A stretch of DNA of 64,000 bases from Bacillota bacterium. Its GTDB lineage: Bacteria; Bacillota; Limnochordia; Darwinibacteriales; DTU012. The notes under the pieces were generated by a model. That model was not told where the DNA came from, ran no database searches, and was given only the letters and a program-made list of their open reading frames with translations. Position 1 is the stretch's first letter; each line of letters opens with the position of its first letter. Shown here in pieces: positions 35,001 through 60,619 of the stretch. The translations under genes and the position numbers were made by a program. The stretch lies in contig JAAYMV010000014.1 in assembly GCA_012521185.1 (NCBI GenBank), positions 3,082 through 67,081 on the forward strand. Direction: 5' to 3'.

Positions 35001-36262
35001 AAAATAACATAGTGAAACGTAAGCTGTTCACCAAAGAAATGCGTCGACAGCATACTATTTTAGCGCCACAAATGTCTCCAATACATTTTGACTTGTTAGA
35101 AAAAGCTTTTAGGCTCTCTGGCTATAACATAGTAGTATGTCCTTCAACAGATCGGGAAGCTATCGATATTGGATTAAAATATGTTAATAATGATGCTTGC
35201 TATCCGGCAATTATTGTCATGGGGCAGTTAATTGAGGCCTTACAATCAAATAAATATGATCCAGATAATACGTCTGTATTGGTTACCCAGACTGGGGGAG
35301 GATGTCGAGCTACAAACTACATTGGATTTTTGAAAAAAGCACTAGTGGATGCTGGTTTTCCCCAAGTCCCTGTCTTATCCCTAAATCCTAAGGGGATGGA
35401 TGATAACCCAGGCTTTAAAATTACTCTTCCACTGCTCCATCGAGCTTTAATGGCAGTTATTTATGGGGATTTGCTAATGCGCCTGTTGTACCGTGTCAGA
35501 CCATACGAAAAAATTAAAGGCTCAGCTAATATACTTTATGAAAAATGGTCGGAAATTTGTAAGAGGACATTAGAAAAACCAGGAATCATAACTTTTAAAA
35601 ATACCATTAAACAAATTGTCAACGAGTTCGATAATTTCGAGATTATAAAAAAAACCAAGCCCAGAGTGGGATTGGTAGGCGAGATTTTAGTGAAATACCA
35701 TCCGACTGCCAACAATAATGTTGTTGAGATCGTAGAATCTGAGGGAGCTGAAGCAGTGGTACCGGATATGACGGATTTCTTCTTATACTCTGCTTTAGGG
35801 CTTGATTTTAGATACCGTTATTTATCTGGTACGAAGATTGAACAAATTCTATCGCGCACTGCGGTTCAAATCATTGAATTGTATCGTAAAACACTGCGTC
35901 AAGCATTAGAGACTAGTAAACGCTTTTCACCGCCAAAATCTATCTATGAAATCGCAGAAAATGCATCAAGGATCATTTCTTTGGGTCATCAAACTGGCGA
36001 AGGTTGGTATTTGACAGGTGAGATGGTAGAGTTAATTGAAAATGGCGTGGAGAATATTGTGTGTATGCAGCCCTTTGCTTGTTTGCCGAATCATGTAACT
36101 GGCAAAGGGATGCTGCGAGAATTAAAGCGAGTTTATCCGAATAGTAATGTAGTAGCAATTGACTATGATCCTGGTGCCAGTGAAATTAACCAGTTAAACC
36201 GGATTAAATTGATGTTAGCAGCGGCTTTCAATAATTGTGAACTACAAGCACAAGCTCAATAG
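32018..36262 (+). CDS. Giant fusion protein: two BadF/BadG/BcrA/BcrD (HgdC-type) activase ATPase domains plus 2-hydroxyacyl-CoA-dehydratase-like domains
   Basis: Two copies of the actin-fold ATPase start motif ([15 protein letters not shown] and [15 protein letters not shown]). Cys-rich linker (CRLCSNNC…C). Long C-terminal region resembling HgdB/BcrB-like dehydratase subunits. Likely start at 32018 (GGAGG + 8 nt). Confidence 0.7.
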
Positions 36263-36292: not shown

Positions 36293-37669
36293 TTAATCTA
36301 TTAGTTGATCGGCTAGCCAGTTAATATATTCTTCGATGGCTGTGTAACCGCTAGGCATGATTTGATTGTGATTACCATTTTTAACTCCTTTTTCTTCTTC
36401 CCACCAATCAGGGATACCATTACGATTTTTGTCTGTGCGGTCGATATCGATTGTTTTAGTTGTAATATCTTGAACTTTTGGCCAAGCGCTAACTACTTCA
36501 CTTTGTGAATCAATGATTTTACCAGTTCTGTTTCGCACATCATTGACTACACGAGCATCGATGGCATCTCGGGGAAAGGCGCCAGCTTTGGCTAAAACTT
36601 CGTCAAAAGCCATCTCAGCAGAACTAGTAGTTACATAAGCAACTGGAAACGGTTCGGTTGCTTTTAGATAAGTAGACTTGCTAGGACCACTACCAGAGAC
36701 TAAAGACCATTGATCACTAGGCAAATTACCATTCATCATATTGCCTAAAAAATATCCCTGAGCGTAGGGGGCATTATCCCTAAAAGCATAGGTATTAGAG
36801 GATGAATTCGGTCCTGGTTTGTAATAGTTGTTGATAAAGTTGTATTGAGTAATGGTATCAGTATCTTCATTGTTGCCGGCATAGGTACCGCCCCAGTTAT
36901 ACATTACATTATTGCGAATGTCAACTAAAAATCCGATTGGATCATCTTTATAAGAAGTATAGTTTCCTGGACGTGGATTACGCCCGCGATTATGCGCCCA
37001 TAGATTGTGATGGAAGCTAACTCTTTGCCCATTGCTACCCCTTATTAAGGAACCATAGCCATGAGGTCGTTTCTCATGATGTGATTCATTTAATGCTTCA
37101 CTAATGATACTCCATTGGATAGTAACTAGATCGCTATCTGATACAGAAAGAGTTTCATCAATACCCCAACTTGAAGTGACATGATCAAGGATTACATTGT
37201 TAGCTCGCAATATTTCGATACTGTCTTTTTCTTGTTTGATAAGATCCCCTAAGCGAACGCGCAGATGACGGACAACTACATGATCAGTTTGAATGGCAAA
37301 ACGCTTATTGGTTAAGGTTATGCCTTTTGGTGAAGTTTGTCCAGCAATAGTAATATAAGGGTTTCTAATTATCAATTCTTCTTTTAATTCAATAATCCCA
37401 GACACTTCAAAAACCACAATTCTTGGTCCACTAGCTTCTACAGCCTCCCGTAGACTGCCCGAACCACTATCATTTAGGTTAGTAACAATATAAACCTTTC
37501 CGCCCCGGCCGCCTCGTGCATCGGCTCCAAAGCCTTCTGCGCCAGGAAAGGCTAAAACTTTACCTGCAACAGGTTCTTTCATTTTAATAAATATATAATC
37601 ACAACCAGTCAATAAACAAAGAGCGACAATTAAAGTGATTAGTACGTAGAATTTTTGTATCTTCTTCAT
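36293..37669 (-). CDS. Pectate lyase, PL1-like β-helix, predicted lipoprotein
   Basis: Lipobox LLTGC. GGRGG…VTNLNDSG…GSLREA…PRIVVFEVSG N-terminal pattern. ILDHV…WGIDE (vWiDH-like) and RNPRPG (RxPxxR-like) motifs. C-terminal NRNGIPDWWEEE motif. Confidence 0.6.
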   Translation of the reverse strand: MKKIQKFYVLITLIVALCLLTGCDYIFIKMKEPVAGKVLAFPGAEGFGADARGGRGGKVYIVTNLNDSGSGSLREAVEASGPRIVVFEVSGIIELKEELIIRNPYITIAGQTSPKGITLTNKRFAIQTDHVVVRHLRVRLGDLIKQEKDSIEILRANNVILDHVTSSWGIDETLSVSDSDLVTIQWSIISEALNESHHEKRPHGYGSLIRGSNGQRVSFHHNLWAHNRGRNPRPGNYTSYKDDPIGFLVDIRNNVMYNWGGTYAGNNEDTDTITQYNFINNYYKPGPNSSSNTYAFRDNAPYAQGYFLGNMMNGNLPSDQWSLVSGSGPSKSTYLKATEPFPVAYVTTSSAEMAFDEVLAKAGAFPRDAIDARVVNDVRNRTGKIIDSQSEVVSAWPKVQDITTKTIDIDRTDKNRNGIPDWWEEEKGVKNGNHNQIMPSGYTAIEEYINWLADQLID

Positions 37670-37680
37670 AACAATCTCCT

Positions 37681-39024
37681 TTACAAGTTATTTATCAGAG
37701 AACTAGCCTTCCAATTTAAATATTCTTCGATGACAGTGTAGCCACTATCGGTGATTCGTTTAGGTAGCTCTGGATCATTAGCATCTAGACCATGCTTAAT
37801 TTCCCACCAATCTGGGATTCCGTTTCGATTAGTGTCTACTTCTGGCTCTCCAGTAAGGATTGGCCAGCCGCCAACTTCATCTTGGGAATTTATAATCTTA
37901 CCAGTCCCATTGATTACATCAGTAATAATTCGCTGATCCACTGGATCGCGGGGTAAAGCACCCACATGGTTTAACACTTTTTGAAAGGCTATTTCGGCAT
38001 GGTCAGTATTGATTGGATAGGTAGGAAAGGGCTCGGTCTTTTTATAATCATCTCGGTTTGTAGCATAGCCTGTAACAATGCTCCAAGGGTCAGCTGGTAA
38101 TTGCCTATTCATATAGTTGCCTGCAAAATAGGCAGCTGATTGAGAACAGCGATCATCAAAGGCAACATTATGATTAGCTCTAGTACTGGGACCAGCTAGA
38201 TAATAATTATTTATAAAGTTGTATTTTGTGATTGAGTCTGAGTCATGGTTGTTTCCACAATAATCACGCCAGTTATAAAAGACATTATTGCGGAAATCTA
38301 CTAGTAAACCTTGGGGATCAAGATCATAACTGTTATAATTTCCTGGCCGAGGCATCCGCCCACGATGATGAGCCCATAGATTATGATGGAAGCTAACTCG
38401 TTCACCATAGCCGCCGCGCAGTAAAGAGCCATACCCATGTTCACCTTTGGCATGTACTGATTGATTTAGACTTTCGGCAATCATGCAATATTGGACAGTT
38501 ACTAAGTCGCTGCTAACTACAGATAGTGTTTCATCGGTTCCCCAACTAGTAGAAACATGATCTAGAATTACATTATTAGCGCTCCTAATTTCTAATGTAT
38601 CTAATTCTCTACCAGAAACATCGCCGGGACGCACCCGCAGATGACGAATAATAGTTTGAGCAGCCCGTACTCCTAACTCATAATTAGCAAGAGTGATACC
38701 GCCTGGTGAAGTTTGACCTGCTATAGTTATGTAGGGATTTCTAATAATTAGTGGAGACTCTAGCTGAATAATACCAGATACTTCAAAAACTACGATTCTT
38801 GGCCCGCTAGCTTCGACTGCTTCCCGTAGGCTGCCAGGTCCGCTGTCATTGAGATTAGTGACGATGTAAACATCACCACCACGACCACCAATTGTATAAG
38901 CACCGAATCCTTCGGCTTCCGGAAAGGCTAACAGTTGATCAGTTGAGGCCATTCCCATGGAACATAAGCTAAATAGCAAAACTGTCAGAGTGAGTAGTGC
39001 AGCTATCGGATTAATTCTACTCAT
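37681..39024 (-). CDS. Pectate lyase, PL1-like β-helix, secreted
   Basis: Signal peptide. Same motif set as the neighbouring gene (ILDHVSTSWGTDE, HRGRMPRPG, NRNGIPDWWE). The two genes are diverged paralogues. Confidence 0.6.
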   Translation of the reverse strand: MSRINPIAALLTLTVLLFSLCSMGMASTDQLLAFPEAEGFGAYTIGGRGGDVYIVTNLNDSGPGSLREAVEASGPRIVVFEVSGIIQLESPLIIRNPYITIAGQTSPGGITLANYELGVRAAQTIIRHLRVRPGDVSGRELDTLEIRSANNVILDHVSTSWGTDETLSVVSSDLVTVQYCMIAESLNQSVHAKGEHGYGSLLRGGYGERVSFHHNLWAHHRGRMPRPGNYNSYDLDPQGLLVDFRNNVFYNWRDYCGNNHDSDSITKYNFINNYYLAGPSTRANHNVAFDDRCSQSAAYFAGNYMNRQLPADPWSIVTGYATNRDDYKKTEPFPTYPINTDHAEIAFQKVLNHVGALPRDPVDQRIITDVINGTGKIINSQDEVGGWPILTGEPEVDTNRNGIPDWWEIKHGLDANDPELPKRITDSGYTVIEEYLNWKASSLINNL

Positions 39025-39185
39025 GTTAGATTCCTCCGTCTCTAGTTACTTATTTTAAGTTTTCGCTAACAATCTGTTAAAACCTGCCGATGACAGTTAA
39101 TTTAAATGTTCACTTTAGTAAAGCAGGAAAAACGGAAAGGTTTGCTGAACACTAAGTTAAGGTCAAATAACGAGGGGTGTTAAAT

Positions 39186-40844
39186 ATGGATAAGTATGTG
39201 ATTGGTGTTGACTTTGGCTCAGATTCAGTCAGAGCATTAGTAATCAATGCTCTAACAGGAGAGGAATTAGCTTCTGCTGTAGCGTATTACAAACGCTGGA
39301 TGGAAGGGAAGTATTGTGATCCTACGAAAAATCAGTTTCGGCAGCATCCATTAGACTACATCGAGGGGTTAACTGAATGTATTACAGAAGCCCTCGGTCA
39401 GTTATCGCCTGAAATAGCAGAACATGTTGTTGGAATTGGTATTGATACCACAGGCTCAACCCCATGTGCCATAGATAAGAATGGACAGCCACTAGCCCTT
39501 AGTCCTGAATTTGCCGAAAATCCTAATGCTATGTTTGTTTTATGGAAGGATCATACAGCAGTCAAGGAAGCCGCAGAAATTAATGAACAGGCTTGGCATC
39601 ATTCGGAAATTGACTATACTAAATACGTTGGCGGTATCTATTCGTCTGAATGGTTTTGGGCAAAAATATTGCACGTCTTGCGCGAAGATTCTCAAGTAAG
39701 AGAGGCAGCTTATTCTTGGGTAGAACACTGTGATTGGATTCCTGCTTTACTAGCTGGAGTTAATTCAGCGGATGCTATTAAACGCAGTCGTTGTGCAGCG
39801 GGTCATAAAGCTATGTGGCATGCGGAATGGGATGGATTGCCAAGTGAAGAGTTTTTAAAAGCAGTTGATCCCTTGTTACAAGGTTATTCTAAAATGTATC
39901 AAGATACTTATCCGTCAAATGAAATTGCTGGGACTCTATGTCAAGAATGGGCAGACAAATTAGGCTTAAAAGCTGGAATACCTATTGCGGTTGGTGCCTT
40001 CGATGCCCATATGGGCGCAGTAGGTGGAGGAGTAACTGCTAAAACTTTAGTCAAGATTATGGGTACTTCCACGTGTGATATTATGGTGGCGCCCTATGAA
40101 GTAATGCAGGATAAATTGGTCGCTGGTATTTGTGGTCAAGTAGATGGATCAGTGATCCCTGGAATGATCGGTTTAGAAGCAGGGCAATCGGCTTTTGGCG
40201 ATGTGTTTGCCTGGTTTAGACAAGTTTTATCCTGGCCTTTAGATGACTTGGTAGAAAAAGGAGAATTAAGCAAAGGAGTTAGGGATCAAGTTTTTGATTC
40301 TATGTTAGGAAATTTAACTGAAGCAGCAGCTAAAATTCCAGTTGAGGAAACTGGACTTGTCGCTCTTGATTGGTTAAATGGTCGACGCACACCTGATGCT
40401 GACCAAACCTTAAAAGGTGCTGTACTTGGTTTAACTTTAGGTTCTTCTGCACCGAAAATTTTCCGTGCCTTAGTTGAAGCAACAGCTTTTGGTTCTAAAG
40501 CTGTAGTTGATCGCTTCCGTGATGAAGGAGTAGAGATTGAGCAGGTTATTGCTTTAGGCGGAATTCCTAAGAAGAATCCTTTTGTAATGCAAGTAACAGC
40601 TAATGTATTTAACATGCCAATTAAAGTAGTAGATTCTGAGCAAGCCTGTGCTTTAGGAGCCGGAATCTTCGCAGCGGTCGTTGCTGGTGTTTATCTAGAT
40701 GTGAATGCTGCACAAAAAGTGATGAGCAGCAAATACGCTAGAACTTACTATCCTGAAGCAGATCAAGTTCAAAAGTATCTGGCGGTTTATGATAAATACT
40801 TATCTATTGGCAAGCTATTAGAAGATAGTTTAAGAGCTTTATAA
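39186..40844 (+). CDS. araB: Ribulokinase (FGGY carbohydrate kinase family)
   Basis: N-terminus DKYVIGVDFGSDSVRALV, FGGY family motifs and the ~550-aa size typical of AraB. Likely start at 39186 (GAGGGG + 7 nt). Confidence 0.85.
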   Translation: MDKYVIGVDFGSDSVRALVINALTGEELASAVAYYKRWMEGKYCDPTKNQFRQHPLDYIEGLTECITEALGQLSPEIAEHVVGIGIDTTGSTPCAIDKNGQPLALSPEFAENPNAMFVLWKDHTAVKEAAEINEQAWHHSEIDYTKYVGGIYSSEWFWAKILHVLREDSQVREAAYSWVEHCDWIPALLAGVNSADAIKRSRCAAGHKAMWHAEWDGLPSEEFLKAVDPLLQGYSKMYQDTYPSNEIAGTLCQEWADKLGLKAGIPIAVGAFDAHMGAVGGGVTAKTLVKIMGTSTCDIMVAPYEVMQDKLVAGICGQVDGSVIPGMIGLEAGQSAFGDVFAWFRQVLSWPLDDLVEKGELSKGVRDQVFDSMLGNLTEAAAKIPVEETGLVALDWLNGRRTPDADQTLKGAVLGLTLGSSAPKIFRALVEATAFGSKAVVDRFRDEGVEIEQVIALGGIPKKNPFVMQVTANVFNMPIKVVDSEQACALGAGIFAAVVAGVYLDVNAAQKVMSSKYARTYYPEADQVQKYLAVYDKYLSIGKLLEDSLRAL

Positions 40845-40856
40845 GGAGAGCTTAAT

Positions 40857-41546
40857 ATGTTAACAGAGCTAAGAAAAGAAGTCTTAGAGGCGAATCTGGA
40901 GTTAAATAATAAAGGATTAGTAGTGTACACTTGGGGGAATGTAAGCGGTATTGATCGGGAACTAGGTTTAGTGGTAATTAAACCTAGTGGCGTGCCTTAT
41001 GAGGAGTTGACTGCTGCGAATTTAGTGGTGGTGAATTTAGCAGGTGAGCTTGTAGAAGGTGATATGCGCCCTTCATCTGATTTGCCAACCCATTTAGAGC
41101 TTTATCGGCAGTTTCCAGAAATAGGTGGGGTAGCTCATACTCACTCTACTTATGCTACTGCTTGGGCTCAAGCTAAGACAGGAATTCCATGTCTAGGCAC
41201 GACTCATGCTGATCATTTTTATGGTGAAGTACCATGTACCCGTCCATTAACCCAAGAAGAAGTTCAAGGTGATTATGAACTAAATACGGGTAAAGTGATC
41301 GTAGAACATTTTCAAAAACTAAATTACCAAGAAATGCCTGCTGTTTTAGTAGCACAACATGGACCCTTTACCTGGGGTAAGAGTGCTACAGAGGCAGTAA
41401 TGAATTCAGTTGTATTAGAAGAAACTGCTACTATGGCAAGTTTAACTATTGGAATTAATCCAACAGTCCAGCCAATTTCTCAATACTTGTTAGATAAGCA
41501 TTTTTTACGTAAACATGGAGCAAATGCTTATTATGGACAAAAATAA
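40857..41546 (+). CDS. araD: L-ribulose-5-phosphate 4-epimerase (class II aldolase fold)
   Basis: 229 aa with the N-terminal pattern and metal-binding His motifs ([16 protein letters not shown]) characteristic of AraD. Confidence 0.85.
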
Positions 41547-41566: not shown

Positions 41567-42115
41567 TTATATACCGATTTTAGCTTTCTGCAAACGGATA
41601 ACTAATAAGGTAGCAATGACTAGTTTAATAGTATCAAGCAAAATAAATGGTGCTACGCCAGTCGAGAAAGCTTGAAGGGCATTAAATTTAAGAACTAGCA
41701 TTAAACCAATTACCCCGCAAAAATAAGTAATGATAAGGCCAATTACTTGAGTTAAGAAGATAGCACCGGGTTGTGTAAATTTCCGTTTTTCTTGAATTAG
41801 TCCGATAACAAAAGCACAAATTACAAAACCCCATAGAAAACCTGCTGTTGGACCATATAACATGGCAAAGCCGCCAGTTCGATTGGAAAATACAGGTAAG
41901 CCAAGAGCTCCCAACAACAAATAGATTAATTGACTTAAAGCACCATAACGACTACCTAAAACTAATCCAGCCATAGCTGTAAAGGTTATTTGTAAGGTAA
42001 TGGGTACTGGTGAAAAAGGAATCGGTACGGAAATAAATCCGCCAATAGCTGTTAAGGCAGCAAATAAACTAACGTAACATAGCTTGACTATTGGTGTTTG
42101 GTTCAAGTTCTTCAC
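41567..42115 (-). CDS. bioY: Biotin transporter BioY (ECF S-component)
   Basis: 182 aa with six TM segments and a BioY-type conserved core (GGFISVPIPFSPVPITLQ…GALGLPVFS). Confidence 0.7.
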   Translation of the reverse strand: MKNLNQTPIVKLCYVSLFAALTAIGGFISVPIPFSPVPITLQITFTAMAGLVLGSRYGALSQLIYLLLGALGLPVFSNRTGGFAMLYGPTAGFLWGFVICAFVIGLIQEKRKFTQPGAIFLTQVIGLIITYFCGVIGLMLVLKFNALQAFSTGVAPFILLDTIKLVIATLLVIRLQKAKIGI

Positions 42116-42178
42116 CTCGTGGATAGTTATTTGCTTTGATTATAGCTGATAGAGCAAATCCTGTCAACCAAGTTGCAA

Positions 42179-43165
42179 TTATGGTTGACGGACAGAAACA
42201 TCAGCTGCCCAAAGATTTGTTAATTTACCGTTCTCTTTCTGAATTAAAAGGGAACCATCAGAGTTTATATCAATAGCTTTGGCGGTATAAGTCTGGTGAT
42301 GAGTATTTACGGTAATGTTTTTTCCTAACAAACACGAATATTCTCTGGCCAATGGAATCAGTTGTCCAAATTCACCTTTGATAAAGTTTAAATAGTTAGT
42401 TTCTAATTGCAGCAATAATTGATTCAATAACTTGATTCGATCAATGTGGTAGCCAAGTACATGGCTTAAAGATGTTGCTATGGCTTTAATTTCCTCAGGC
42501 CAGTTATCGGTTGCGCTGTTACAGTTAAGACCAATGCCGAGAACAAGGTATTTGATAGTTTCTGGATCAGCTGAGAGTTCAGTTAAGATACCACAAACTT
42601 TGCGATTATCGATCAGAATATCATTAGGCCATTTGATGACAGCAGGCAGTTGATAGTCTTTTCGCAGTACTTGAACAATGGAAATAGCCACTAATAAAGT
42701 AATTGTAGAAACTTCTGCTAATGACAGCTTTGGTCGAAGTAGCAGCGAAAAATATAGACCACCTGGCTCTGACAGCCAATTCCGTCCTCGCCGTCCCCGG
42801 CCTCTCGTCTGCCGCTCTGCAATAACTAGCAAACCTTCTGCAGTATCTTGTTTACCGTAATCTTTTGCTACATCGTTAGTTGAATCCGTTTCTTCTAAGG
42901 CAATAATTTGATTTCCTAACAGTTGAGTTTCTAAGACTGCTCTTATTTCACTACTGGTTAATTTATCTGGTTTGTTTATAAGACGATAACCCTGCCCAGG
43001 TATCGCTTGAATTATATAGCCTTGCTCCCTTAAATTATTGATATGTTTCCAAATTGCTGTTCGACTGACGCCTAACAATTGACTTAGCTGTGCTCCTGAT
43101 AAATTACCATTTTGCATCTCAAATAACTTGATGATATTTACTTCAATTTTATTCATATTGCTCAC
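42179..43165 (-). CDS. birA: Bifunctional biotin-protein ligase / biotin operon repressor
   Basis: N-terminal HTH (GAQLSQLLGVSRTAIWKHINNLREQG), BPL catalytic core (GRGRRGRNWLSEPG) and a C-terminal SH3-like domain. Confidence 0.85.
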   Translation of the reverse strand: MSNMNKIEVNIIKLFEMQNGNLSGAQLSQLLGVSRTAIWKHINNLREQGYIIQAIPGQGYRLINKPDKLTSSEIRAVLETQLLGNQIIALEETDSTNDVAKDYGKQDTAEGLLVIAERQTRGRGRRGRNWLSEPGGLYFSLLLRPKLSLAEVSTITLLVAISIVQVLRKDYQLPAVIKWPNDILIDNRKVCGILTELSADPETIKYLVLGIGLNCNSATDNWPEEIKAIATSLSHVLGYHIDRIKLLNQLLLQLETNYLNFIKGEFGQLIPLAREYSCLLGKNITVNTHHQTYTAKAIDINSDGSLLIQKENGKLTNLWAADVSVRQP

Positions 43166-43358
43166 ATCCTTGCTGTATAATTCGTTTTTGGTATTTTTTT
43201 ACCTGCTAGAACAGAGATTTAACGATATGTTTGGATTCGAGGTTAATTATTTGTTGTTTTATTGTATACTAACATATTATGGCAGGATTTTATAATAATA
43301 ATAGTAGAATAACTAGGGTGATTAATATTTGATTGTTCTGGATTAGGAGGACTAGACA

Positions 43359-44909
43359 ATGGAGAAGTTGAAAAAAGTGTGGGTGGCTGACCAAGGTGAT
43401 GGTACATATATTAATCCGATAATTCATGCTGACTATTCGGATCCAGACGTGATTCGAGTAGGTGATGATTTTTTCATGACCGCTTCTAGTTTTAACTGCA
43501 CACCTGGGTTACCTATTTTACATTCTAAAGATTTAGTTAACTGGAAATTAGTGAACTATGCGATTAAAAATGTAGACTTACCAGGCTATGAGCTACCAGG
43601 TCATGGTAAAGCGATTTGGGCTCCATCCATTCGTTATCATGACAATAAATTCTGGATTTGCGTAGGCTTACCTGATGAAGGTATTTATATGACTACAGCT
43701 GAGGATCCATTTGGCGAATGGTCACCGCTGTTTTTAGTTAAAGAAGGCAAAGGCTTAATCGATCCTTGTCCATTCTGGGATGATGACGGTCAAGCTTATT
43801 TAGTCCATGCTTTTGCTGCTAGTCGTGCTGGTCAACATATGAAGAGTAAGTTGATCTTACATCGGATGGCTCCAGATGGTACTAAAGTACTTGATGAAGG
43901 TAAGATTATTTTTGATGGCACTAAAGATCATCCAACTCTTGAAGGTCCAAAAATGTATAAACGTAATGGTTACTATTACATTATGGCACCAGCTGGCGGT
44001 GTGTCTACTGGCTGGCAAACCATTTTCCGCTCAAAAGATGTTTGGGGACCTTACGAAGATAAAATTGTTTTGGCTCAAGGTAATACTGAAATCAATGGTC
44101 CACACCAAGGTGGTTGGGTAGAATTAGAATCTGGTGAATCTTGGTTTATTCACTTCCAAGATAAAGGTGCTTACGGTCGAATTACTCATTTGCAACCAGT
44201 TCGCTGGGAAGATGATTGGCCATTAATGGGGCATAACCAGGATGAAAATGATGTTGGTGAACCAGTTTTACGCTGGCAAAAGCCGAAGGTAGGCAAAGAA
44301 TATCCAATCGAAGTAATTGACACATCTGATTTATTTGATGGTGATCAACTGGGATTACAATGGCAATGGTTTGCTAATCATCAAGATGATTGGTACGAGC
44401 TTGGAGAGTTCGGTTTACGTTTACATGCAGTTGGTATACCTCTAGAGGAAAAAACTATGTGGAGTGTACCAAATATTTTAGCTCAAAAATTCCCAGCCCT
44501 ACAGTTTAGTGTAACAACCAAGATGACAGCTAATTTGAAAAAGCCAAGTGAAAAAGCTGGTTTAGTAATTACAGGGGATAAGTATTGCTACTTAGCAGTT
44601 CATCAGACTGAAGATGGTTGGACTTTAAGCCGTTTTGAAGGCAATAAAGATCAACAGGAGGAAGGCGACAAGTTCATTAGTTCTGTGCAGTTACCATCTA
44701 ATGAAGTGTACTTAAGGGTAGAAGTTGTCAAAAACGCTTTATGCACCTTCAAATATAGCTTAGATGGCAAAGAATATTACACTATAGGTGAACAGTTCCA
44801 AGCTGTTAAAGGACGTTGGATTGGAGCCAAAGTCGGTTTGTACTGTATTGATGAAAATTCAGGAGAAGGCTCAGCTGATTTCCAATACTTTATTGTGGAA
44901 GAGATTTAG
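43359..44909 (+). CDS. Glycoside hydrolase family 43 (β-xylosidase/α-L-arabinofuranosidase-type), cytoplasmic
   Basis: 5-bladed propeller motifs (DPDVIRVGDDFFMTASSF, catalytic Asp/Glu contexts) plus a C-terminal β-sandwich. No signal peptide. Confidence 0.85.
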   Translation: MEKLKKVWVADQGDGTYINPIIHADYSDPDVIRVGDDFFMTASSFNCTPGLPILHSKDLVNWKLVNYAIKNVDLPGYELPGHGKAIWAPSIRYHDNKFWICVGLPDEGIYMTTAEDPFGEWSPLFLVKEGKGLIDPCPFWDDDGQAYLVHAFAASRAGQHMKSKLILHRMAPDGTKVLDEGKIIFDGTKDHPTLEGPKMYKRNGYYYIMAPAGGVSTGWQTIFRSKDVWGPYEDKIVLAQGNTEINGPHQGGWVELESGESWFIHFQDKGAYGRITHLQPVRWEDDWPLMGHNQDENDVGEPVLRWQKPKVGKEYPIEVIDTSDLFDGDQLGLQWQWFANHQDDWYELGEFGLRLHAVGIPLEEKTMWSVPNILAQKFPALQFSVTTKMTANLKKPSEKAGLVITGDKYCYLAVHQTEDGWTLSRFEGNKDQQEEGDKFISSVQLPSNEVYLRVEVVKNALCTFKYSLDGKEYYTIGEQFQAVKGRWIGAKVGLYCIDENSGEGSADFQYFIVEEI

Positions 44910-44917
44910 ATTTTATT

Positions 44918-44953
44918 AAAGCCGGTTGGATAGTCAATCTAACCGGCTTTTTC
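44918..44953 (+). terminator. Rho-independent terminator
   Basis: AAAGCCGGTT…AACCGGCTTT followed by TTT. Confidence 0.7.
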
Positions 44954-45042
44954 ACCATTGTTTTTACTAGTGAACTAGACTATACTAAAAGGGCAGAGTA
45001 GTAATTTAGTAGTTTAGTAAACTAGTAGAATGAGGTGATTGA

Positions 45043-45522
45043 ATGAAGATCCCAACGAGTTTAAAGCATAAGCCGGTTATTGTTTCGGAAAATTACAGTA
45101 ATGTAGATGGGCGACAAGCTTATGAATCAGATGCAAAAGGCCTTTCTCTAGGTTTGGCTCAATGGAATGATCGAGGCAATGTAGATATTTCAGCTAAAGT
45201 ATGGCGACATACTGGCGAAAAATGGTCACGCCAATCAGAAGAACTGCCATTACATCGTGTGCTAGACTTAGCCATTCTCATAGCCAGAACAAAATTGCAT
45301 TTTCGTGATGCTTATCGTTATGAAAAATTATATGATCCAGACAATCCAGTAATAGATCGGATTGGCTTACAAGGGGATGCGATGACTGTAGCTGTGTGTA
45401 CAGAGAATGAGAAGATTGATCAAGATCTTCAGCTTTTCCAAGAGGCTCTTATTAAAGATGATGAGCTCTTGGCAGAACGTTTACGGACTTTAGCAAGAAT
45501 TTTACGTGAAATGGGTTATTAG
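45043..45522 (+). CDS. Hypothetical cytoplasmic protein (159 aa)
   Basis: Good RBS (GAGGTGA). No recognisable motif. Confidence 0.4.
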   Translation: MKIPTSLKHKPVIVSENYSNVDGRQAYESDAKGLSLGLAQWNDRGNVDISAKVWRHTGEKWSRQSEELPLHRVLDLAILIARTKLHFRDAYRYEKLYDPDNPVIDRIGLQGDAMTVAVCTENEKIDQDLQLFQEALIKDDELLAERLRTLARILREMGY

Positions 45523-45542
45523 TTTGCGGAAGGAGCAGGAAA

Positions 45543-47483
45543 GTGATTACAGTTTTTGAAAATGATTATGCTGAACTGGATGTTGGAGTTTTTCCCCATG
45601 ATTATTCTGCGTTAGGAGAGTACCATTTGGCTTTTCCACCTGGCAGAACAGGACCTTGGATTGCTTCCACTGTTCACCATTCCTGGCGTGGAAATCCTTC
45701 ATGGATTATTACTACAGAAAATGGAAAAAAGGTCTTAGAACAGGCTTGTATTCGCCAAAAGTTTTTGCCAATGCTGGTTACTGGTGATTTTAAGTGGCAG
45801 GATTATCAAATTGACACAGTTTTTAGACCTTTGTCCTTAAATGGTGCATTTGGGATAGTATTCCGTTACCAAACTAGTCGTCATTGGTATGCACTTTGGT
45901 ATGATCATGAAAAATTGCAAATTGTAGTGAAAGAGGATGACTTGTTTCAAGTCTTATCAGAAACAGCTTGGACACCAAGTTGTGATCTGTATTATCCTGT
46001 GACAATCAAAGTAGATGGAAACCAGTTTTCGGCCATAGTTGATGGTATAGAATTATCTGCTGCGGATGAACGTTACACCACCGGAAAGGTAGGTTTTGCT
46101 GGTACCCATCCAGTACGGTTTGGCAAGATCTCAGTTCAAATGGAATCTGCTAAATATGAAGCCTATTTACAAGAGCAAGAAGAAGAAGAACAATTAATCC
46201 GAAAAAAACGGGCATCCTTACCCCAGCCAAAGCTATGGAAAAAGATTCCGACCCCTGGATTTGGTGCTGGTAAGAGTATTCGTTTTGGCGATCTAGATAA
46301 TGATGGGCGACAAGAGATCTTATTAGCGCAAAATATTCGTCGGATGCGCGGTGACAATTTTAGTGAGATTAGTTGTCTAACAGCTATTGACTTAGACGGT
46401 AACGTGTTATGGCAAATTGGTGAACCTAATCCAGCGAACGCCTTGGTTTCTAATGATTTACCGATGCAAATTCATGATATTGATGGAGATGGAGAGCAGG
46501 AAGTTATCTTCTGTAAAGACTTTAAAATCAAAGTTGTGAATGGAAAAACAGGTGAGTTAAAATATGAAGCACCTACTCCAGTTGCACCGCCTCATAAAGG
46601 CGATAAAATGCCAGAAACTCAGTATCATAGAATTACAGGAGATTCCATTTACTTTTGTGACCTGACTGCTCAAGGTGAGCCGCGCGATATGATTATTAAA
46701 GATCGTTATAATAATATTTGGGCTTATACTTGGGATTTAAAGCAGTTGTGGCATTATCAGGGTAACTCTGGTCATTTCCCAATGGCTTGTGATATTGATG
46801 GAGATGGTAAAGATGAGATCCTGATTGGTTACACATTATTAGACCATGATGGTACAGTAATGTGGTCATTGGATATTGGTGATCATGCTGATGGTGTAGC
46901 AATTGGTAAATTTGCTGGTGATGACGAATGGCAGTTTATTATTGCAGCTAGTGATGAAGGTATGTACTGGGTAGATTACCATGGAAATATAGTTAAACAT
47001 CATCGGATTGGTCATGCACAAACTGCAACTATCGCACCTTTTTATCAAGGGTCAAACGAGTTGCAAGTTGTTACAGTAACTTTCTGGGGCAATCCTGGAA
47101 TTATTATTTACTTTGATGCTAAAGGTAACATTCTCAAACGTATGGAGCTAATAGCCCCCTTTGGTACTCCATTATCTCCAGTGAATTGGGATGGGTCTGG
47201 TAGAGAATTGATTTTATTATCCGGTCACCCAACTTTTGGCGGTTTAATTGATGAGGATGGGCATCGAGTAGTAATGTTCCCAGATGATGGACATCCTTAT
47301 CTCTGTTGTGAACCAATGGATTTAACCGGTGATGGCCTGGATGAAATCCTATTATGGGATGAAAACGAAATCTGGATTTACACGCAGGACCAACCAAGTA
47401 AGAATACTGGTTATCAGCCAGTACGTCAACCATCTTATAACATGTCCAACTATCGGGCTCAATTATCCTTACCGAAGAAGTAG
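45543..47483 (+). CDS. Cytoplasmic two-domain protein: N-terminal lectin/LamG-like (DUF1080-like) jelly-roll plus FG-GAP/VCBS-type β-propeller with DxDGDG calcium-binding repeats
   Basis: DxDGDG repeats: FGDLDNDGRQEI, HDIDGDGEQEV, CDIDGDGKDEI, MDLTGDGLDEI. No signal peptide. GTG start after GGAAGGAG. Function unassigned, possibly a PL11-like or other carbohydrate-active propeller. Confidence 0.45.
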   Translation: MITVFENDYAELDVGVFPHDYSALGEYHLAFPPGRTGPWIASTVHHSWRGNPSWIITTENGKKVLEQACIRQKFLPMLVTGDFKWQDYQIDTVFRPLSLNGAFGIVFRYQTSRHWYALWYDHEKLQIVVKEDDLFQVLSETAWTPSCDLYYPVTIKVDGNQFSAIVDGIELSAADERYTTGKVGFAGTHPVRFGKISVQMESAKYEAYLQEQEEEEQLIRKKRASLPQPKLWKKIPTPGFGAGKSIRFGDLDNDGRQEILLAQNIRRMRGDNFSEISCLTAIDLDGNVLWQIGEPNPANALVSNDLPMQIHDIDGDGEQEVIFCKDFKIKVVNGKTGELKYEAPTPVAPPHKGDKMPETQYHRITGDSIYFCDLTAQGEPRDMIIKDRYNNIWAYTWDLKQLWHYQGNSGHFPMACDIDGDGKDEILIGYTLLDHDGTVMWSLDIGDHADGVAIGKFAGDDEWQFIIAASDEGMYWVDYHGNIVKHHRIGHAQTATIAPFYQGSNELQVVTVTFWGNPGIIIYFDAKGNILKRMELIAPFGTPLSPVNWDGSGRELILLSGHPTFGGLIDEDGHRVVMFPDDGHPYLCCEPMDLTGDGLDEILLWDENEIWIYTQDQPSKNTGYQPVRQPSYNMSNYRAQLSLPKK

Positions 47484-47490
47484 TTATTAT

Positions 47491-47524
47491 AAAGCTGTTT
47501 AGCATAATGCTAGACAGCTTTTTC
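47491..47524 (+). terminator. Rho-independent terminator
   Basis: AAGCTGTTTAGCAT/ATGCTAGACAGCTT hairpin followed by TTTTT. Confidence 0.7.
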
Positions 47525-47609
47525 CGTTTGCTAGCAGGAAAGAAAGTTTGAAAAATTGAATAATAGAAATAGCTGTTAATGTTATAAACTTGAAAAGGAA
47601 GCGATATCT

Positions 47610-49841
47610 GTGGCTAAAATATTTAAATCAGTTGTTAAATATCGTTGGTTAGTATTGCTTTTTTTTACATTGGTGACGGTTTTTTTTAGCTATCATTTAT
47701 TTAATCTTCAATTAGACACCAATGTTACTAATTTAACGACTGGCAGTGAAGAAGAGGCTAAAGCTATTGAACAAGCAGCCCGAGATTTTGCTGTTAGTGA
47801 TCCCTTACAGATAATTTTGCTTGGTGATACTAATAACCCAGAAATGCTGCAAAAAGCTGCTAATACTGTTTATCAAATCCGAGCTTTACCAGATGTTTTT
47901 CAGTTATTAAGTCCCTTTGATACTACGTATTTTTCAGCAGTCGGGTTTCTGTTACAAACCTTTCCAGTAGCACCAAAGGTGCCAGAAACAAGCGATGAAG
48001 TTAAAGCTTTTAAAAATAAATTAGCGATGTCGCCAAATGGGAAAATGATGATTAGCGCCGATGGTGATGCCTTGTTATTAGAAGCATATATACAAGGTGC
48101 TGGTGGAACACGGGGAAACCGAGTAGTTGCTAAGATTGAAGAGCTGCTTAATGAGACATGGGGTAAAGATAACTATGCTATTACCGGCAGTGCTTATTTA
48201 ACCTATGCCGCTGAACAAAGCATTATTCGTGACATTATGGTACTTTTTCCGCTTGCAGCAATCATTGTACTTGTAGTTTTGTATTTGAGTTTTCGCAATT
48301 GGTGGTGTATCTGGGCTCCTGCTTTAACCGTTTTTATAGCAATTGTGGTTAGTATGGGGATGATGGCCTGGTTAGGCTATCCTATTACTATGGTGAGTGC
48401 GATTATGCCTGTGTTGCTGGTGGTAGTAGCATCAGCTGACGGCATTCACATTATCCATACCTATCAAGAAAAGTTAACGGTTGCTCGCGGTAAAGAGGAA
48501 GCAATTTTAGTAACTATGAATCAGTTAGCTGGACCAGTAATTATGACCAGCTTAACTACAGCCTTAGGTTTAATCTCTTTGCGCAGCTCAACAGTAATTC
48601 CCGTAAAAGATTTTGGTACATTTTCCGCTTTAGGGGTTATTGTAGCTCTATTCTTTGCCTTGTTTGGAATTCCAGCTTTATTAGCTGTTTTACCTCCTTT
48701 ATATCGAACGAAAGCAAGACAAAAGCAAGTAAATTATGATAATAAGCTGTTAGTTAAGTTTAGTAGATTTGTTAGTCGCCGAGCTTATCTTGTTGGAATT
48801 ATAAGTATAGTGATTTTGCTATTCTGTACTTATGGTATGAGAAACTTAACTGTAGAATCGAACGTAGCTCGTTACTTTAAAAGTGGCAGTCGAGTAACTG
48901 CTGGAATTAACTTATATGAAGAGAAATTTGCTGGGTCTTCTAAGGTTTTGGTAATTGTAGACACAGGCAAAAGTCTAGGGGCAGTTGATACAGACTTTCT
49001 GCCAGTTCTGGATCAGTTGGAACAATATATCCGAACTGTTTCCTTAGTCACCGATACTATGTCGATCGCTTCTATTGCCCGAGATTTTACGCCTGATGGT
49101 CAGTTATACCCTAGTTTAGTTAGACTGGTATATCGCCAATTACCACAAATGTATACCAGAGCTTTTCTCAGCCGTGACAATCAAAGCAAAACAGCTATTC
49201 ATGTAAATATAAAAAGTGCTCGAACATCGCAGCTTTCTGCTACTTTAAATCAATTAGAAAGTGGTTTGCAAGAGCTTGCCCCTGATGAGCTATCGATTAC
49301 AGTTGCGGGTATACCAAAAATTATTCAGTATCACATGGAACGCTTCTCCCAAAGTCAAATAGTAAGTTTGTTTTGGTCGGCTGTTACGGTCTTATGTTTA
49401 CTAATTCTATTTTTCCGTTCTTTTAGACTAGGATTATTAGGAATCTTGCCTTTGTTATTTACTGTTGGTATTAATTTTGGGGTAATGGGTTGGCTCGATA
49501 TACCGTTAGATGCAGCCACAATCTTGATTGGTAGTATTGCTATTGGCATCGGCATTGATTATTCAATCCATTTTATTAATAGAGTCGCTGTAGAGGAAAG
49601 TTTAGGATGGCAATTATCCGAAGCTTGTGAGCGAACGATTCAAACTACTGGTCGTGCCATATTAATTAATGCTTCAACACTAATTTGTGGCTTTGGCATT
49701 TTGGCATTTTCTGTTTTTACTACTGTTTCGATTTTCGGTTCATTAATGGCCTTTACTATGGCTACAAGTTCTTTAGCAGCTGTAATTGTCTTGCCTGCAT
49801 TATTACAGCAAACTGGAAGAAGTTTACGAAAAATAAAATGA
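47610..49841 (+). CDS. MMPL/RND-superfamily membrane transporter (12 TM, two large extracytoplasmic loops)
   Basis: 743 aa with an N-terminal TM then a large loop, two TM bundles (SSD-like), and conserved GxDxxIH-type motifs ([25 protein letters not shown]). GTG start. 16-bp gap to araA. Confidence 0.7.
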
Positions 49842-49857
49842 TGGAGGAGGAATTAGG

Positions 49858-51345
49858 ATGATTAACTTAAAAAATTATGAAGTGTGGTTGGTCGCTGGAA
49901 GTCAGCATCTTTATGGAGAGGAAACACTCCAACAAGTAGAAAAGCATGCTCGTCATATTGCTGATGCTTTAGATCAAAGTAGTTTGATTCCAGTACAAGT
50001 AGTATTTAAGTCCGTACTAACAACAGCCGAAGACATTAAGCGATTATGTTTGGAAGCCAACCTAGCGGAAGACTGTGTTGGATTGATCGCTTGGATGCAT
50101 ACTTTTTCTCCTGCCAAAATGTGGATTGCTGGTTTAAAATCTTTACAGAAGCCTTTTGTCCATTTGCATACTCAGTTTAATCGAGATATCCCTTGGCAGG
50201 ACATTGACATGGATTTTATGAATCTTAACCAATCAGCCCATGGTGGACGGGAATTTGGCTTTATGGCTACTCGGATGGAAATTGAACGTAAAGTTATTGT
50301 TGGGCACTGGCAAGAACCTGTAATTCAAGCTGAATTAGGCGCCTGGGCTAGAGCTGCAGTTGGCTGGCAAGTATGGCAAACTACCAAAGTTGCCCGTTTT
50401 GGCGATAATATGCGTTCAGTTGCTGTTACTGAAGGGGACAAAGTTGAAGCTCAATTACAGCTTGGATATACGGTTAATGGTTATGGAATTGGCGACTTGG
50501 TGCAGGTAATAAATCAAGTAAGTCAAGCAGAAGTAGATGCTTTGGTAGCTGAATATGATACAAATTACCAGGTAGTTGAGGCATTGCAAGCTGGTGGAGC
50601 TAAACGAGATTCATTAGTTGAAGCAGCCCGCATCGAGTTAGGCTTAAAGAAATTCTTAGATGATGGAGGCTATACTGCATTTACTACTACTTTTGAGAAC
50701 CTACATGGTTTAAATCAGTTGCCTGGCTTTGCTGTTCAAAGATTAATGGCTCAAGGATATGGTTTTGGTGCAGAAGGTGACTGGAAAACCGCTGCTTTGT
50801 TAAGAGTTATGAAAGTAATGGCTAGTGGTTTACCAGGTGGTACTTCTTTCATGGAAGACTATACTTACCACTTAGAACCAGGAAGTAATTTAGTGCTTGG
50901 CGCTCATATGTTAGAAGTGTGTGAATCAATTGCTGCCAGTAAACCTTCACTAGAGATTCATCCGCTTTCAATTGGTGGAAAAGCTGATCCTGTTCGTTCG
51001 GTGTTTACTGCCAAAGAAGGATCAGCCATCAATGTTACTTTAGTGGATTTAGGTCATCGCTTCCGAATGATTGTTAATCAGGTGGAAGTGGTTTCCGCAA
51101 GAGAGTTACCAAAATTACCTGTAGCACGGGCATTGTGGAAACCATTACCAGATTTACCAGTCGCTGCTGCTGCTTGGATACTAGCTGGCGGAGCCCATCA
51201 TACTGTTTTTAGCCAAGCCTTAACCATAGCTCATTTAGAAGATTTCGCTGAAATTGCTGGTATCGAGTATTTAGTAATTGATTCTGAGACTGATTTACGC
51301 CGGTTCAAACAGGAACTGCGTTGGAATAAAGCCTATTATGGGTAG
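49858..51345 (+). CDS. araA: L-arabinose isomerase
   Basis: Near-colinear motif match to AraA ([78 protein letters not shown]). Confidence 0.9.
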
Positions 51346-51354
51346 TATTTTCAT

Positions 51355-51395
51355 AACCTTCCTGTCCGAGGACATGGAAGGTTATTTAATTTTTA
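51355..51395 (+). terminator. Rho-independent terminator (imperfect hairpin)
   Basis: AACCTTCCTGTCC-gag-GGACATGGAAGGTT followed by ATTTAATTTTT. Confidence 0.55.
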
Positions 51396-58593: not shown

Positions 58594-58798
58594 TGAAAGA
58601 TACTCCTTCTATGTTAGGATGACTAATCAAGTTAGAAAACAATCTTTTAATGTATAAATTCCATATTCATAACATAAGTCCTTCCAGAATTCTATCTTTT
58701 TTCTTGAAAATGTGGAGCTAGGAAGGTTAATGAAAAAGTTTGTATAATAAAATTATTAAAGTAAAATTATAACATTGTTGTAAAGGAGGAAAAGGTTG

Positions 58799-60619
58799 AT
58801 GCAATCTAAGCTAGGAGTTGTTTCAATTATATTTTTGCTGTTATGTTCAGGCATTGTTAGTGCGCAGATTTCCGAGCAGCAGTTGGTGGATTTACTGATT
58901 ACTTTAGGTGATTCAAATCCAATGGTAGCCTGGGAAGCTCATCGTAACTTACAGAAACTTGCTCCGGAGTATCTTACCTTAAATGAAGTTGCGTTAGAAA
59001 AGGTATTGCCTAAGTTGGCAGATCCAACTGTCAGAGATAATGTGATCAATTTGTTTCTTCGTGCACCTGAGAGTGGTGTTAGCTTATTGATAAACACGAT
59101 CAAAGATTCGGAGACTTCCATATTACTTAAAGATCAAGCTATTCAGTTACTAGGTAAAATGACTGGAGAAACACAGCAGATAGTTGCTGTTTTAGTTGAA
59201 TTGTTAGAAAATGAGCAAACGCCATACTTAATAAGAGTTTCTGCTAGCGATATGTTAGCTAATTTGGAAGTAGCTGATCAATCTGAATTGGTAACCAGAG
59301 CTTTAGAGGAGGCAAAGTATCTTAACCAATACATATATAATGAGCAAATTGTTTTTCGGATTGATAATAATTTAGCAGAACCACTTGATAATCATCTAGT
59401 TGTTGGGGTATTAGCAATCCCTGAATTAGATATTAAATTAGAAGATTTAGCGGTAGTAGATGATCAAGGAAATCGGATTCAAGCTAGAATTAGAGAGCTA
59501 GCTAGTTGGTCAAGTGGCAGTCCACGGGTGGTGGAGATTTCTTTAGCAGTTAGTTTAGATGCTCATGGCGTAGCTACCTATTATTTGCAGTTGAGTGGTA
59601 CTACTGGATTTGCATCAAATATTAACAATAATGCAGTTAGTTTTAGTTTCTTTGGCGAAGGTATTTCAGGGTTTACAGATTTAGATCTACCATATCAGGA
59701 AGGGTGGAGTAATTTGATGATTGTAGCTAAAGATGGAAGTGGCCAGTTTGATAGTGTGCAAGCCGCTATCGACGCAGTTCCTGAAAACAACAAAGAGCGA
59801 GTTTATATTTATATTAAAAATGGTGTTTATAAAGAAAAGATTACTGTACCAGAAAATAAACCGTTCATTAGTCTAATTGGAGAAAGTAGTGAAGGTACCA
59901 TTTTAACCTATGATGATAGTGCTCGGACCATAGGCCCAGATGGCAAAGAATTAGGAACTACAGGAAGTTCTAGTTTTTTTGCTAAAGCAGATGATTTTAC
60001 GGCTGAAAATATTACCTTCCAGAATACCGCTGGCATGTATGCAGGGCAAGCAGTAGCAATTAGAACCTACGGTGATCGATGTATATTTAACAATTGTCGT
60101 TTCCTTGGTTATCAAGATACTTTGTATGTTACAGGTGGGCGACAATATTTTGTTAACTGCTATATTAAAGGTGATGTGGATTTTATTTTTGGCGATGCAA
60201 CTGCGGTTTTTGAAAACTGCGATATTGTGGCAACTAACAGACGAGAAGGTGGATATATCACAGCTGCATCTACCCCTGAAACATCAGAGTTTGGTTATTT
60301 AATAATCAATAGCCGTTTAATTGGGGAAGGTGAAGCCAATAAATTCTATTTAGGTCGTCCTTGGCGTCCTTATGGTGCAGTAGCAATTATTAATTCTTGG
60401 ATTGGAGATCATATTCGCCCAGAAGGGTGGCATAATTGGAGTAATCCAGCTAATGAGCAAACAGCTCGCTATGTTGAATATAATAATTCCGGTCCTGGAG
60501 CTGCTACTGAGCGAAGAGTTCCTTGGTCTACAGTATTAACAGCTGAAGAGGCAGCGAGATATACTGTGGAAAATGTTTTAAGAGGTAATGATGGGTGGAA
60601 TCCTAAATTGCGTGATTAG
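58799..60619 (+). CDS. Secreted pectinesterase (CE8) with N-terminal HEAT-like α-helical module related to that of the PL11 paralogues
   Basis: Signal peptide, ~160-aa helical module and a middle β-rich segment. CE8 motifs: GSGQFDSVQAAIDAVP, QAVAIR, GYQDTLY, DFIFG, LGRPW. Confidence 0.85.
   Translation: MQSKLGVVSIIFLLLCSGIVSAQISEQQLVDLLITLGDSNPMVAWEAHRNLQKLAPEYLTLNEVALEKVLPKLADPTVRDNVINLFLRAPESGVSLLINTIKDSETSILLKDQAIQLLGKMTGETQQIVAVLVELLENEQTPYLIRVSASDMLANLEVADQSELVTRALEEAKYLNQYIYNEQIVFRIDNNLAEPLDNHLVVGVLAIPELDIKLEDLAVVDDQGNRIQARIRELASWSSGSPRVVEISLAVSLDAHGVATYYLQLSGTTGFASNINNNAVSFSFFGEGISGFTDLDLPYQEGWSNLMIVAKDGSGQFDSVQAAIDAVPENNKERVYIYIKNGVYKEKITVPENKPFISLIGESSEGTILTYDDSARTIGPDGKELGTTGSSSFFAKADDFTAENITFQNTAGMYAGQAVAIRTYGDRCIFNNCRFLGYQDTLYVTGGRQYFVNCYIKGDVDFIFGDATAVFENCDIVATNRREGGYITAASTPETSEFGYLIINSRLIGEGEANKFYLGRPWRPYGAVAIINSWIGDHIRPEGWHNWSNPANEQTARYVEYNNSGPGAATERRVPWSTVLTAEEAARYTVENVLRGNDGWNPKLRD

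Follow-up and report, generated by a model that had tools for sequence, protein, structure and literature searches.

The 64-kb stretch of contig JAAYMV010000014.1 analysed here (hereafter the window) comes from an uncultured Firmicute of anaerobic digesters, deposited as a 'Bacillota bacterium' metagenome-assembled genome, and is a pectin-utilisation region of an anaerobe. We concentrated on four consecutive genes, which encode a DUF6530 protein, a propeller protein, an RND/MMPL transporter and the L-arabinose isomerase AraA, together with the GH43 glycosidase gene that precedes them (Table 1). The GH43 enzyme, the transporter (as RND family transporter) and AraA already had NCBI entries (NLM24770, NLM24773 and NLM24774, respectively). 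AraA scored above the equivalog cutoff and matched the AraA_N, AraA_central and Arabinose_Iso_C Pfam domains over their full length, as expected of an L-arabinose isomerase.

Three hairpins punctuate this segment, located after the GH43, propeller and araA genes. Each of them is followed by a U-run and 0 of 200 shuffled sequences folded as well, as is characteristic of Rho-independent terminators; the initial annotation of the window, made from the sequence alone, had correctly placed terminators at these three sites. It had also noted a gap of only 16 nt between the transporter gene and araA. We searched this spacer for secondary structure and for a terminator and found none, its only content being the araA ribosome-binding site (RBS). 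An Rfam scan of the whole window gave no match.

Table 1. Coordinates of the genes and signals discussed in the text (positions in the window).
Feature	Position	Strand	Evidence or remark
SigH-type promoter-like motif, araB	39123..39152	+	GCAGGAAA-N18-GAAC; every relative examined has it, at -54 to -72
araB (ribulokinase)	39177-40844	+	NCBIfam equivalog NF003154, 754 bits
araD (L-ribulose-5-P 4-epimerase)	40857-41546	+	TIGR00760/NF006047, 367-371 bits
bioY + birA	41567..43165	-	Pfam BioY, NCBIfam birA_ligase; separate araBD from the remaining cluster
SigH-type promoter-like motif, GH43	43282..43312	+	Orthologous motif precedes the GH43, propeller or MMPL gene in relatives, by gene content
GH43 with GH43_C2 domain, beta-xylosidase / alpha-L-arabinofuranosidase type	43359..44909	+	Pfam 3.1e-68, 1.5e-38
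Intrinsic terminator after GH43	44918..44953	+	14-bp stem, -20.8 kcal/mol, z -6.3, U-tract
SigA-like promoter for DUF6530	44958..44986	+	TTGTTT-17-TATACT, read from sequence; like architecture in L080, L081
8-nt-periodic TAGTA repeats, promoter to RBS of DUF6530	44999..45028	+	TAGTAATT TAGTAGTT TAGTAAAC TAGTAG
DUF6530 (PF20140) protein, 159 aa	45043..45522	+	Pfam, residues 1-159 = profile 1-159, 288 bits, 1.9e-86
Cytoplasmic propeller protein, 646 aa: CBM66/DUF1080-like beta-sandwich (~residues 1-200), helix, eight-bladed FG-GAP/PL11-like propeller	45543..47483	+	
Intrinsic terminator after propeller gene	47491..47524	+	14-bp stem, -18.6 kcal/mol, z -4.6, U-tract
SigH-type promoter-like motif, MMPL-araA unit	47534..47563	+	GCAGGAAA-N18-GAAT; just downstream of the 47491-47524 hairpin
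HAE3-like RND/MMPL transporter, 743 aa	47610..49841	+	Pfam MMPL PF03176 6.9e-46; TIGR00921 314.2 bits
MMPL-araA spacer	49842..49857	+	16 nt, TGGAGGAGGAATTAGG; holds araA RBS GGAGGAGG
araA (L-arabinose isomerase), 495 aa	49858..51345	+	NF002795 equivalog, 834.3 bits vs cutoff 622
Intrinsic terminator after araA	51355..51395	+	-19.1 kcal/mol, z -4.6, U-rich tail

The pairing of an MMPL transporter gene with araA, described as unexpected in the initial annotation, was then followed by a synteny search. At the protein level, ten cluster representatives were 50-54% identical to the transporter and the next match was at 33%. At every locus encoding an MMPL protein of at least 49% identity (ENA contigs L001-L007, GTDB species representatives L011-L014 and L017, and JGI/ENA metagenomes L045-L052, L054 and L057), araA was found immediately downstream, so that the pair, unusual as it is, spans several uncultured Bacillota species. 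In these relatives the MMPL stop codon often overlaps the araA start by 8 nt, which places the araA RBS inside the MMPL coding sequence. The common block could be written araB-araD-(bioY, birA on the opposite strand)-[GH43]-[propeller]-MMPL-araA-...-PdaC-GPDH-ODP-GH77, with flanking content that varies by species (GH43 and propeller, propeller only, or neither). The GH43, propeller, DUF6530 and downstream FIST/GGDEF genes are present at some loci and missing from others, while the pair persists. FIST and PAS-GGDEF-HD (c-di-GMP) genes lie between araA and a PdaC-like gene in L001-L007 and L012-L014 (about 13800-16800); the window has neither there, araA being followed by its terminator and a PdaC/DUF3298 gene.

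Aligning the intergenic regions of relatives yielded the motif (G)GCAGGAA[AT]-N18-GAAT. It is located ahead of araB, ahead of whichever gene comes first after birA and ahead of the MMPL gene, at a distance of 55-120 nt. With AGGA and GAAT 18 nt apart ahead of genes, it resembles the promoters recognised by SigH (Spo0H) in Firmicutes, whose consensus in Sporomusa, B. subtilis and C. difficile is a -35 AGGA and a -10 GAAT separated by 17-18 nt (PMC12456013). Most relatives checked carry it 65-118 nt upstream of the MMPL gene (L001, L013, L014, L051, L052, L054 and L057), and L052, from which the GH43 and propeller genes are absent, has nevertheless kept both copies. The strict pattern AGGA-N18-GAAT occurs 6 times in the window for 0.5 expected. 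In the form GCAGGA-N-GAAT and in the correct orientation, copies were recorded ahead of cls (2435, minus strand), a Metallophos phosphoesterase gene (4361, minus), purC (10438, plus) and a PAS gene (31925, minus), in addition to those of araB (39123, plus), GH43 (43282, plus) and the MMPL gene (47534, plus). Since cls, the phosphoesterase gene and purC are among these targets, the motif does not define an arabinose regulon, and we rejected it as an arabinose-specific operator. We also discarded the motif GGCAGGAA as a sigma-54 promoter, the GG-to-GC spacing being wrong and the -12 element not conserved. The distribution of the copies rather suggests a broad SigH-like regulon including central and sugar metabolism in the host lineage. 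Expanded SigH regulons have been reported (PMC12456013); the difference from known SigH promoters is that the motif here stands ahead of, and may drive, genes of sugar catabolism, with a SigH dependence that is predicted.

Because the MMPL gene and araA are separated by a 16-nt gap holding an RBS and no hairpin, are flanked by strong terminators, are conserved as a pair and are preceded by their own promoter motif, we propose that they form a bicistronic operon with its own SigH-type promoter, in which an RND exporter is co-produced with AraA. We give this reading a probability of about 55%. The transcript would start at the SigH-type promoter just downstream of the propeller terminator and end at the hairpin after araA. 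The division of the region into two transcription units made in the initial annotation agrees with the strong terminators and with the position of the motif, which supports a separate MMPL-araA unit. The upstream unit, described there as a hypothetical gene followed by the propeller gene, exists in the window and is specific to this genome, its relatives having GH43-propeller, propeller only or neither. Alternatively, araA could be read mainly from a promoter of its own in the 3'-terminal part of the MMPL gene, and adjacency would not, in that case, mean an operon. Consensus scans do return many weak promoter-like matches inside coding regions. However, the MMPL gene has no SigH-type or strong SigA-type motif over its final 200 nt, no terminator separates the two genes, and the gap of 16 nt, replaced in relatives by an 8-nt overlap and an RBS located within MMPL codons, leaves such an internal promoter only a slim chance of being the main source of araA transcripts.

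The nature of the 743-residue protein was examined with profile searches and hydropathy. PF03176 was matched in 2 stretches, MMPL/RND domains lying in both halves of the protein, and matches to Sterol-sensing, Patched and ACR_tran were also obtained, in agreement with the MMPL/RND assignment first made by inspection. Its best NCBIfam family is HAE3 (TIGR00921; TCDB 2.A.6.7), but the score lies below the cutoff of 351.9 bits; the protein is therefore HAE3-like and falls in a separate clade. The hydropathy profile comprises 12 transmembrane segments (TM), arranged as TM1 (8-32), a loop (33-208), TM2-6 (209-361), TM7 (392-410), a second loop (411-583) and TM8-12 (584-732). The two extracytoplasmic loops following TM1 and TM7, of about 175 residues each, and the overall length close to 750 residues are those of HAE3, HpnN and MmpL3/MmpL11, with which the protein also shares the MMPL and sterol-sensing Pfam domains, an Asp in TM4 and an Asp-Tyr pair in TM10. 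Within the 11 members of the clade, the TM4 Asp (D277, in GSADGIH) is found in 9, while D650 and Y651 of TM10 (GIDYSIH) are invariant. The same positions form the proton relay of MmpL3, and RND proteins are described as proton antiporters extruding their substrate (PMC6463170). By sequence, the closest solved relatives are HpnN (9.5e-12), then SecDF, MmpL3/4/5 and AcrB-type pumps. The Pfam and NCBIfam searches matched only RND families and none of the sugar-transporter families (ABC, MFS, SSS, PTS). Judged from these features, the protein is best described as belonging to a distinct HAE3-like clade of exporters driven by the proton-motive force; transport would be outward, and the protein does not appear to be a sugar importer. 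The initial annotation had named a sugar-importer family, or a pairing with araA unconserved in relatives, as grounds for abandoning its idea, and the searches returned neither.

The RND protein must nevertheless be considered as a carbohydrate transporter, either as the missing importer of arabinose or arabino-oligosaccharides or as a valve exporting excess arabinose or ribulose. The sugar-efflux pumps YdeA and SetA of E. coli are analogues of such an overflow valve. Among open reading frames (ORFs) of at least 120 residues in the window, we found no sugar importer (ABC, MFS, SSS or PTS) and no AraR/GntR/LacI regulator, as had been noticed initially; the only permeases are CitMHS, MatE, Mrp, a P-type ATPase and BioY, all unrelated to MFS. 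Relatives likewise have no other sugar transporter beside the ara genes, and the MMPL gene is tightly coupled to araA. Against this, the importer could be encoded elsewhere in the genome, the protein is unlike any sugar-transporter family, and the families nearest to it (HAE3, HpnN and MmpL3) transport lipids. To our knowledge, every bacterial RND protein characterised so far is an exporter working from the membrane or periplasm, which counts against import. The antiport mechanism by which RND proteins extrude their substrate (PMC6463170) also disfavours this alternative, which we consider very unlikely; nothing indicates that the RND protein handles arabinose, and its features are those of an exporter driven by the proton-motive force. 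In a wider form, the RND protein would be a dedicated component of arabinan and pectin utilisation moving a carbohydrate-derived substrate and, independently, DUF6530 would be a new fold whose gene is controlled by a leader of TAGTA repeats; this we judge improbable. The substrate could then be arabinose or ribulose (as overflow), debris of feruloylated or acetylated arabino-oligosaccharides, or an imported oligosaccharide.

The distribution of the pair allows a further explanation. The ancestor of the lineage may have acquired an RND gene between araA and a promoter upstream of it, and the gene would have been kept since araA needs the promoter, the two genes being co-transcribed and functionally unrelated. 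Several observations weigh against our exporter-AraA reading, some of them pointing to such a historical accident. Only one lineage has the pairing, and there synteny covers the entire block of about 20 kb, so that shared ancestry alone could explain the pairing. It was never seen with MMPL homologues of 42% identity or less, and the closest outgroup, the Kosmotogaceae (41-42%), shows no sugar or arabinose context. The pump evolves faster than its neighbours, araA included (50-54% identity against 70-77%). The SigH-type motif, found before cls, the phosphoesterase gene and purC, is generic rather than arabinose-specific, and a search for the AraR operator TGTACGTACA with up to 2 mismatches gave 18 matches for 19.5 expected, none at the ara promoters. 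The amphiphilic substrate proposed below is one that we infer. The ara genes were, moreover, already scrambled, with araBD followed by bioY-birA and then araA. On the other hand, the pair has remained intact and translationally coupled while at least 4 neighbouring genes were gained or lost across species, and the MMPL ORF runs to full length, nearly every member having retained the proton-relay residues. We therefore regard an accident as possible, though rather unlikely. Since synteny extends over the entire neighbourhood, however, what conservation shows is a stable operon and not a functional link: of the initial proposal, the conserved pairing stands and the link keeps the status of a hypothesis.

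Homologues at 29-33% identity occur in classical TetR/MarR-MMPL-TP_0789 (LolA-like) exporter operons, a context that speaks for an exporter. Unlike these, the window gene has no adjacent TetR/MarR regulator or LolA-like TP_0789 partner; it differs from HAE3 genes in sitting in an arabinose/pectin cluster, translationally coupled to araA. The Kosmotogaceae (Thermotogota) proteins (L015, L016, L053, L055, L056 and L058) are nearer than any other Firmicute homologue found, which suggests cross-phylum transfer of the RND gene in anaerobic digesters.

With an exporter co-produced with AraA, the following scheme can be proposed. Outside the cell, pectin would be depolymerised by the secreted enzymes of the window (PL11, PL1-like and pectinesterase), and arabinose or arabino-oligosaccharides would enter via a transporter encoded elsewhere. 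The cytoplasmic GH43 enzyme, possibly with the PL11-like propeller protein, would trim the entering arabino-oligosaccharides, and AraA, AraB and AraD would convey L-arabinose into the pentose-phosphate pathway. The 743-residue product would be a proton-driven RND exporter of the HAE3/MmpL3/HpnN kind rather than the arabinose importer that the window lacks. Sharing an mRNA with AraA, it would be made whenever arabinose catabolism is on. Our best guess is that it would expel a hydrophobic or amphiphilic compound met on the plant cell wall, for example hydroxycinnamates from arabinan side chains.

The other arabinose genes of the window were compared with classical L-arabinose operons, namely araBAD with araE/araFGH and AraC in E. 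coli, and araABDLMNPQ-abfA with AraR in B. subtilis. As in these, equivalogs of AraA, AraB and AraD are all present, with a GH43 enzyme of arabinofuranosidase/xylosidase type nearby; a transaldolase gene is also found in the window. The nearest PDB entries of the GH43 protein are GH43 xylosidases and arabinofuranosidases, and a signal peptide was sought in it and not found, pointing to the cytoplasm. The window differs from the classical operons in that the divergent bioY-birA genes split araBD from araA, an arrangement identical in all relatives, in that no AraR operator, regulator or importer was found, in that the partner of araA is an RND exporter, and in that the predicted promoters are SigH-type instead of SigA-type. 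For bioY there is a promoter of its own, TTGACA-17-TATAAT, which fits the SigA consensus perfectly and is situated between birA and bioY (42139-42167, minus strand).

Pectin-degrading enzymes are abundant in the surroundings. Three tandem secreted PL11 rhamnogalacturonan lyases (13015-21268) match RGL11_C profile positions 1-487 with 830-864 bits, and each carries, after its signal peptide, an N-terminal HEAT-repeat module of about 300 residues. A secreted pectinesterase (58796-60619) has an N-terminal extension of about 300 residues resembling this module. HEAT repeats on secreted pectinases are seemingly unusual and could form a module for anchoring or assembly. Two paralogous secreted or lipoprotein ORFs of 458 and 447 residues (36293-37669 and 37681-39024, both on the minus strand) look like PL1-type pectate lyases, one with a weak PF00544 match (7.8e-4) and the other without any, and may represent a divergent pectate-lyase clade. 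Finally, a 1425-residue fusion of two BcrAD/BadFG-type ATPase domains with DUF2229 (CoA-enzyme activase) is encoded at 31985-36262 (plus strand), an architecture typical of strict anaerobes.

The 646-residue protein had been described initially as a cytoplasmic PL11-like propeller with a lectin-like N-terminal domain and as a possible oligosaccharide-processing enzyme. Pfam recognised FG-GAP repeats and a partial RGL11_C, the latter restricted to profile positions 213-288 of 490 (76/490, 48 bits), well short of a full-length PL11 domain. No signal peptide was found, consistent with a cytoplasmic location. The AlphaFold model (34 sequences, pLDDT 93.2, pTM 0.92) predicts the eight-bladed beta-propeller of PL11. 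Foldseek ranked YesW and YesX first for this model, with a PL11 structure giving the highest identity (22% over 368 residues), and profile-profile alignment to the true PL11 domains of the window reached 99.1% probability over 352 columns. The Ca2+ ligands (His, His, Asp, Glu) and the Arg and Lys residues of PL11, which bind or neutralise the uronate carboxylate, were taken from PMC8787155. The Ca2+ site is kept in 34/34 members of the family, with H411, H448 and D450 unchanged throughout and either D or E at position 471, corresponding to YesW His363, His399, Asp401 and Glu422, as in the PL11 lyases YesW, YesX and BLi01367. The catalytic residues are not. Within the limits of an imprecise profile alignment in these loops, the PL11 Arg aligns with the variable T494 (T/R/S/K) and the PL11 Lys with a gap beside the invariant D582-G583-H584-P585. 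We take these two residues to be Arg452 and Lys535 in YesW numbering. Both being missing, the protein is not a member of PL11: judged by its residues, it has the scaffold and metal site of PL11 and fails on the catalytic residues.

The N-terminal region, without Pfam match, is a beta-sandwich of the CBM66/DUF1080-like type. This domain, with its invariant E26-Y27-H28, and the cytoplasmic location distinguish the protein from the secreted PL11 lyases; conversely, compared with CBM66 and DUF1080 (PF06439) modules, the domain is fused to a propeller and intracellular. Other family-specific invariants are R247, Q263, K386, R388-Y389 and H491-x-Q493. The family gave more than 1,200 matches, nearly all of about 650 residues and 40-47% identical across Armatimonadota, Planctomycetota, Poribacteria, KSB1 and Paenibacillus; no match was obtained in PADLOC or PHROGs. 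An intracellular, metal-dependent glycan-processing enzyme would be a reasonable reading, the oligosaccharide-processing role suggested at first being a plausible guess and not a result. Family members elsewhere adjoin ABC sugar/peptide transporters, a LacI regulator and FmdA_AmdA amidases. In two loci from unrelated phyla (L043, 6967-7823; L044, 9965-10816), the propeller gene stands beside FmdA_AmdA (acetamidase/formamidase) and ABC transporter genes; these FmdA_AmdA neighbours hint at a substrate with an amide or N-acyl group rather than pectin.

The DUF6530 gene, whose product matches its profile over the full length, occupies the slot between the GH43 and propeller genes in the window only. 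It is absent there in all relatives, in which the propeller gene follows GH43 after about 22 nt, whereas the window contains in this place a terminator, a SigA-like promoter, the TAGTA repeats and the DUF6530 gene. The propeller gene of the window is thus probably now read from the DUF6530 promoter. The repeat run is the only such cluster in the window, and TAGTA/TACTA arrays also precede DUF6530 in Desulfitobacterium, Neobacillus and Tissierella, hence in all four genomes. In three other genomes, a GIY-YIG-only gene of about 116 residues, a homing-endonuclease domain match (PADLOC/PHROGs), directly follows DUF6530; it is absent in the window. DUF6530 itself has no match in PADLOC or PHROGs, and 2 of 2.9 million viral contigs contain a relative; DUF6530 is therefore not phage-borne. 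From its context, we consider it an unrelated, independently regulated insertion that does not belong to the conserved cluster.

More than 7,000 cluster representatives of DUF6530 were retrieved, nearly all of exactly 159 residues, and the window protein is 82-86% identical to those of Desulfitobacterium, Desulfosporosinus, Desulfotomaculum, Tissierella, Lutispora, Neobacillus, Cytobacillus and others; taken over distant Firmicutes as a whole, identity is 82-92%. A recent transfer was rejected, synonymous sites being saturated (pS 0.66-0.87 against pN 0.05-0.11); saturation with a low pN indicates ancient purifying selection, at a level of conservation which we presume close to that of a ribosomal protein. 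Neither the sequence nor its confidently predicted structure model gave a PDB match, proteins of 700-980 residues with an N-terminal DUF6530 domain have no other Pfam domain, and a literature search for DUF6530 found no paper.

All components of this region belong to known superfamilies. What is unusual is a lineage-specific arabinose operon with an RND exporter as partner, a cytoplasmic propeller family that is PL11-like without being PL11, and the insertion of an ultra-conserved orphan. DUF6530 constitutes a well-defined target for functional discovery in Firmicutes. The propeller family, with its PL11 scaffold and different catalytic residues, is a candidate new family of carbohydrate-active enzymes present in many phyla. 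As for the transporter, a literature search combining HAE3, RND and arabinose found no paper, and we know of no earlier HAE3-type RND pump that takes part in a sugar pathway; a carbohydrate role, if true, would be the first. Should the pump serve the metabolism of arabinose or pectin, HAE3/MmpL-type RND proteins would have a role other than those known for lipids and drugs, and a detoxification or overflow step would be indicated in the anaerobic digestion of plant biomass.

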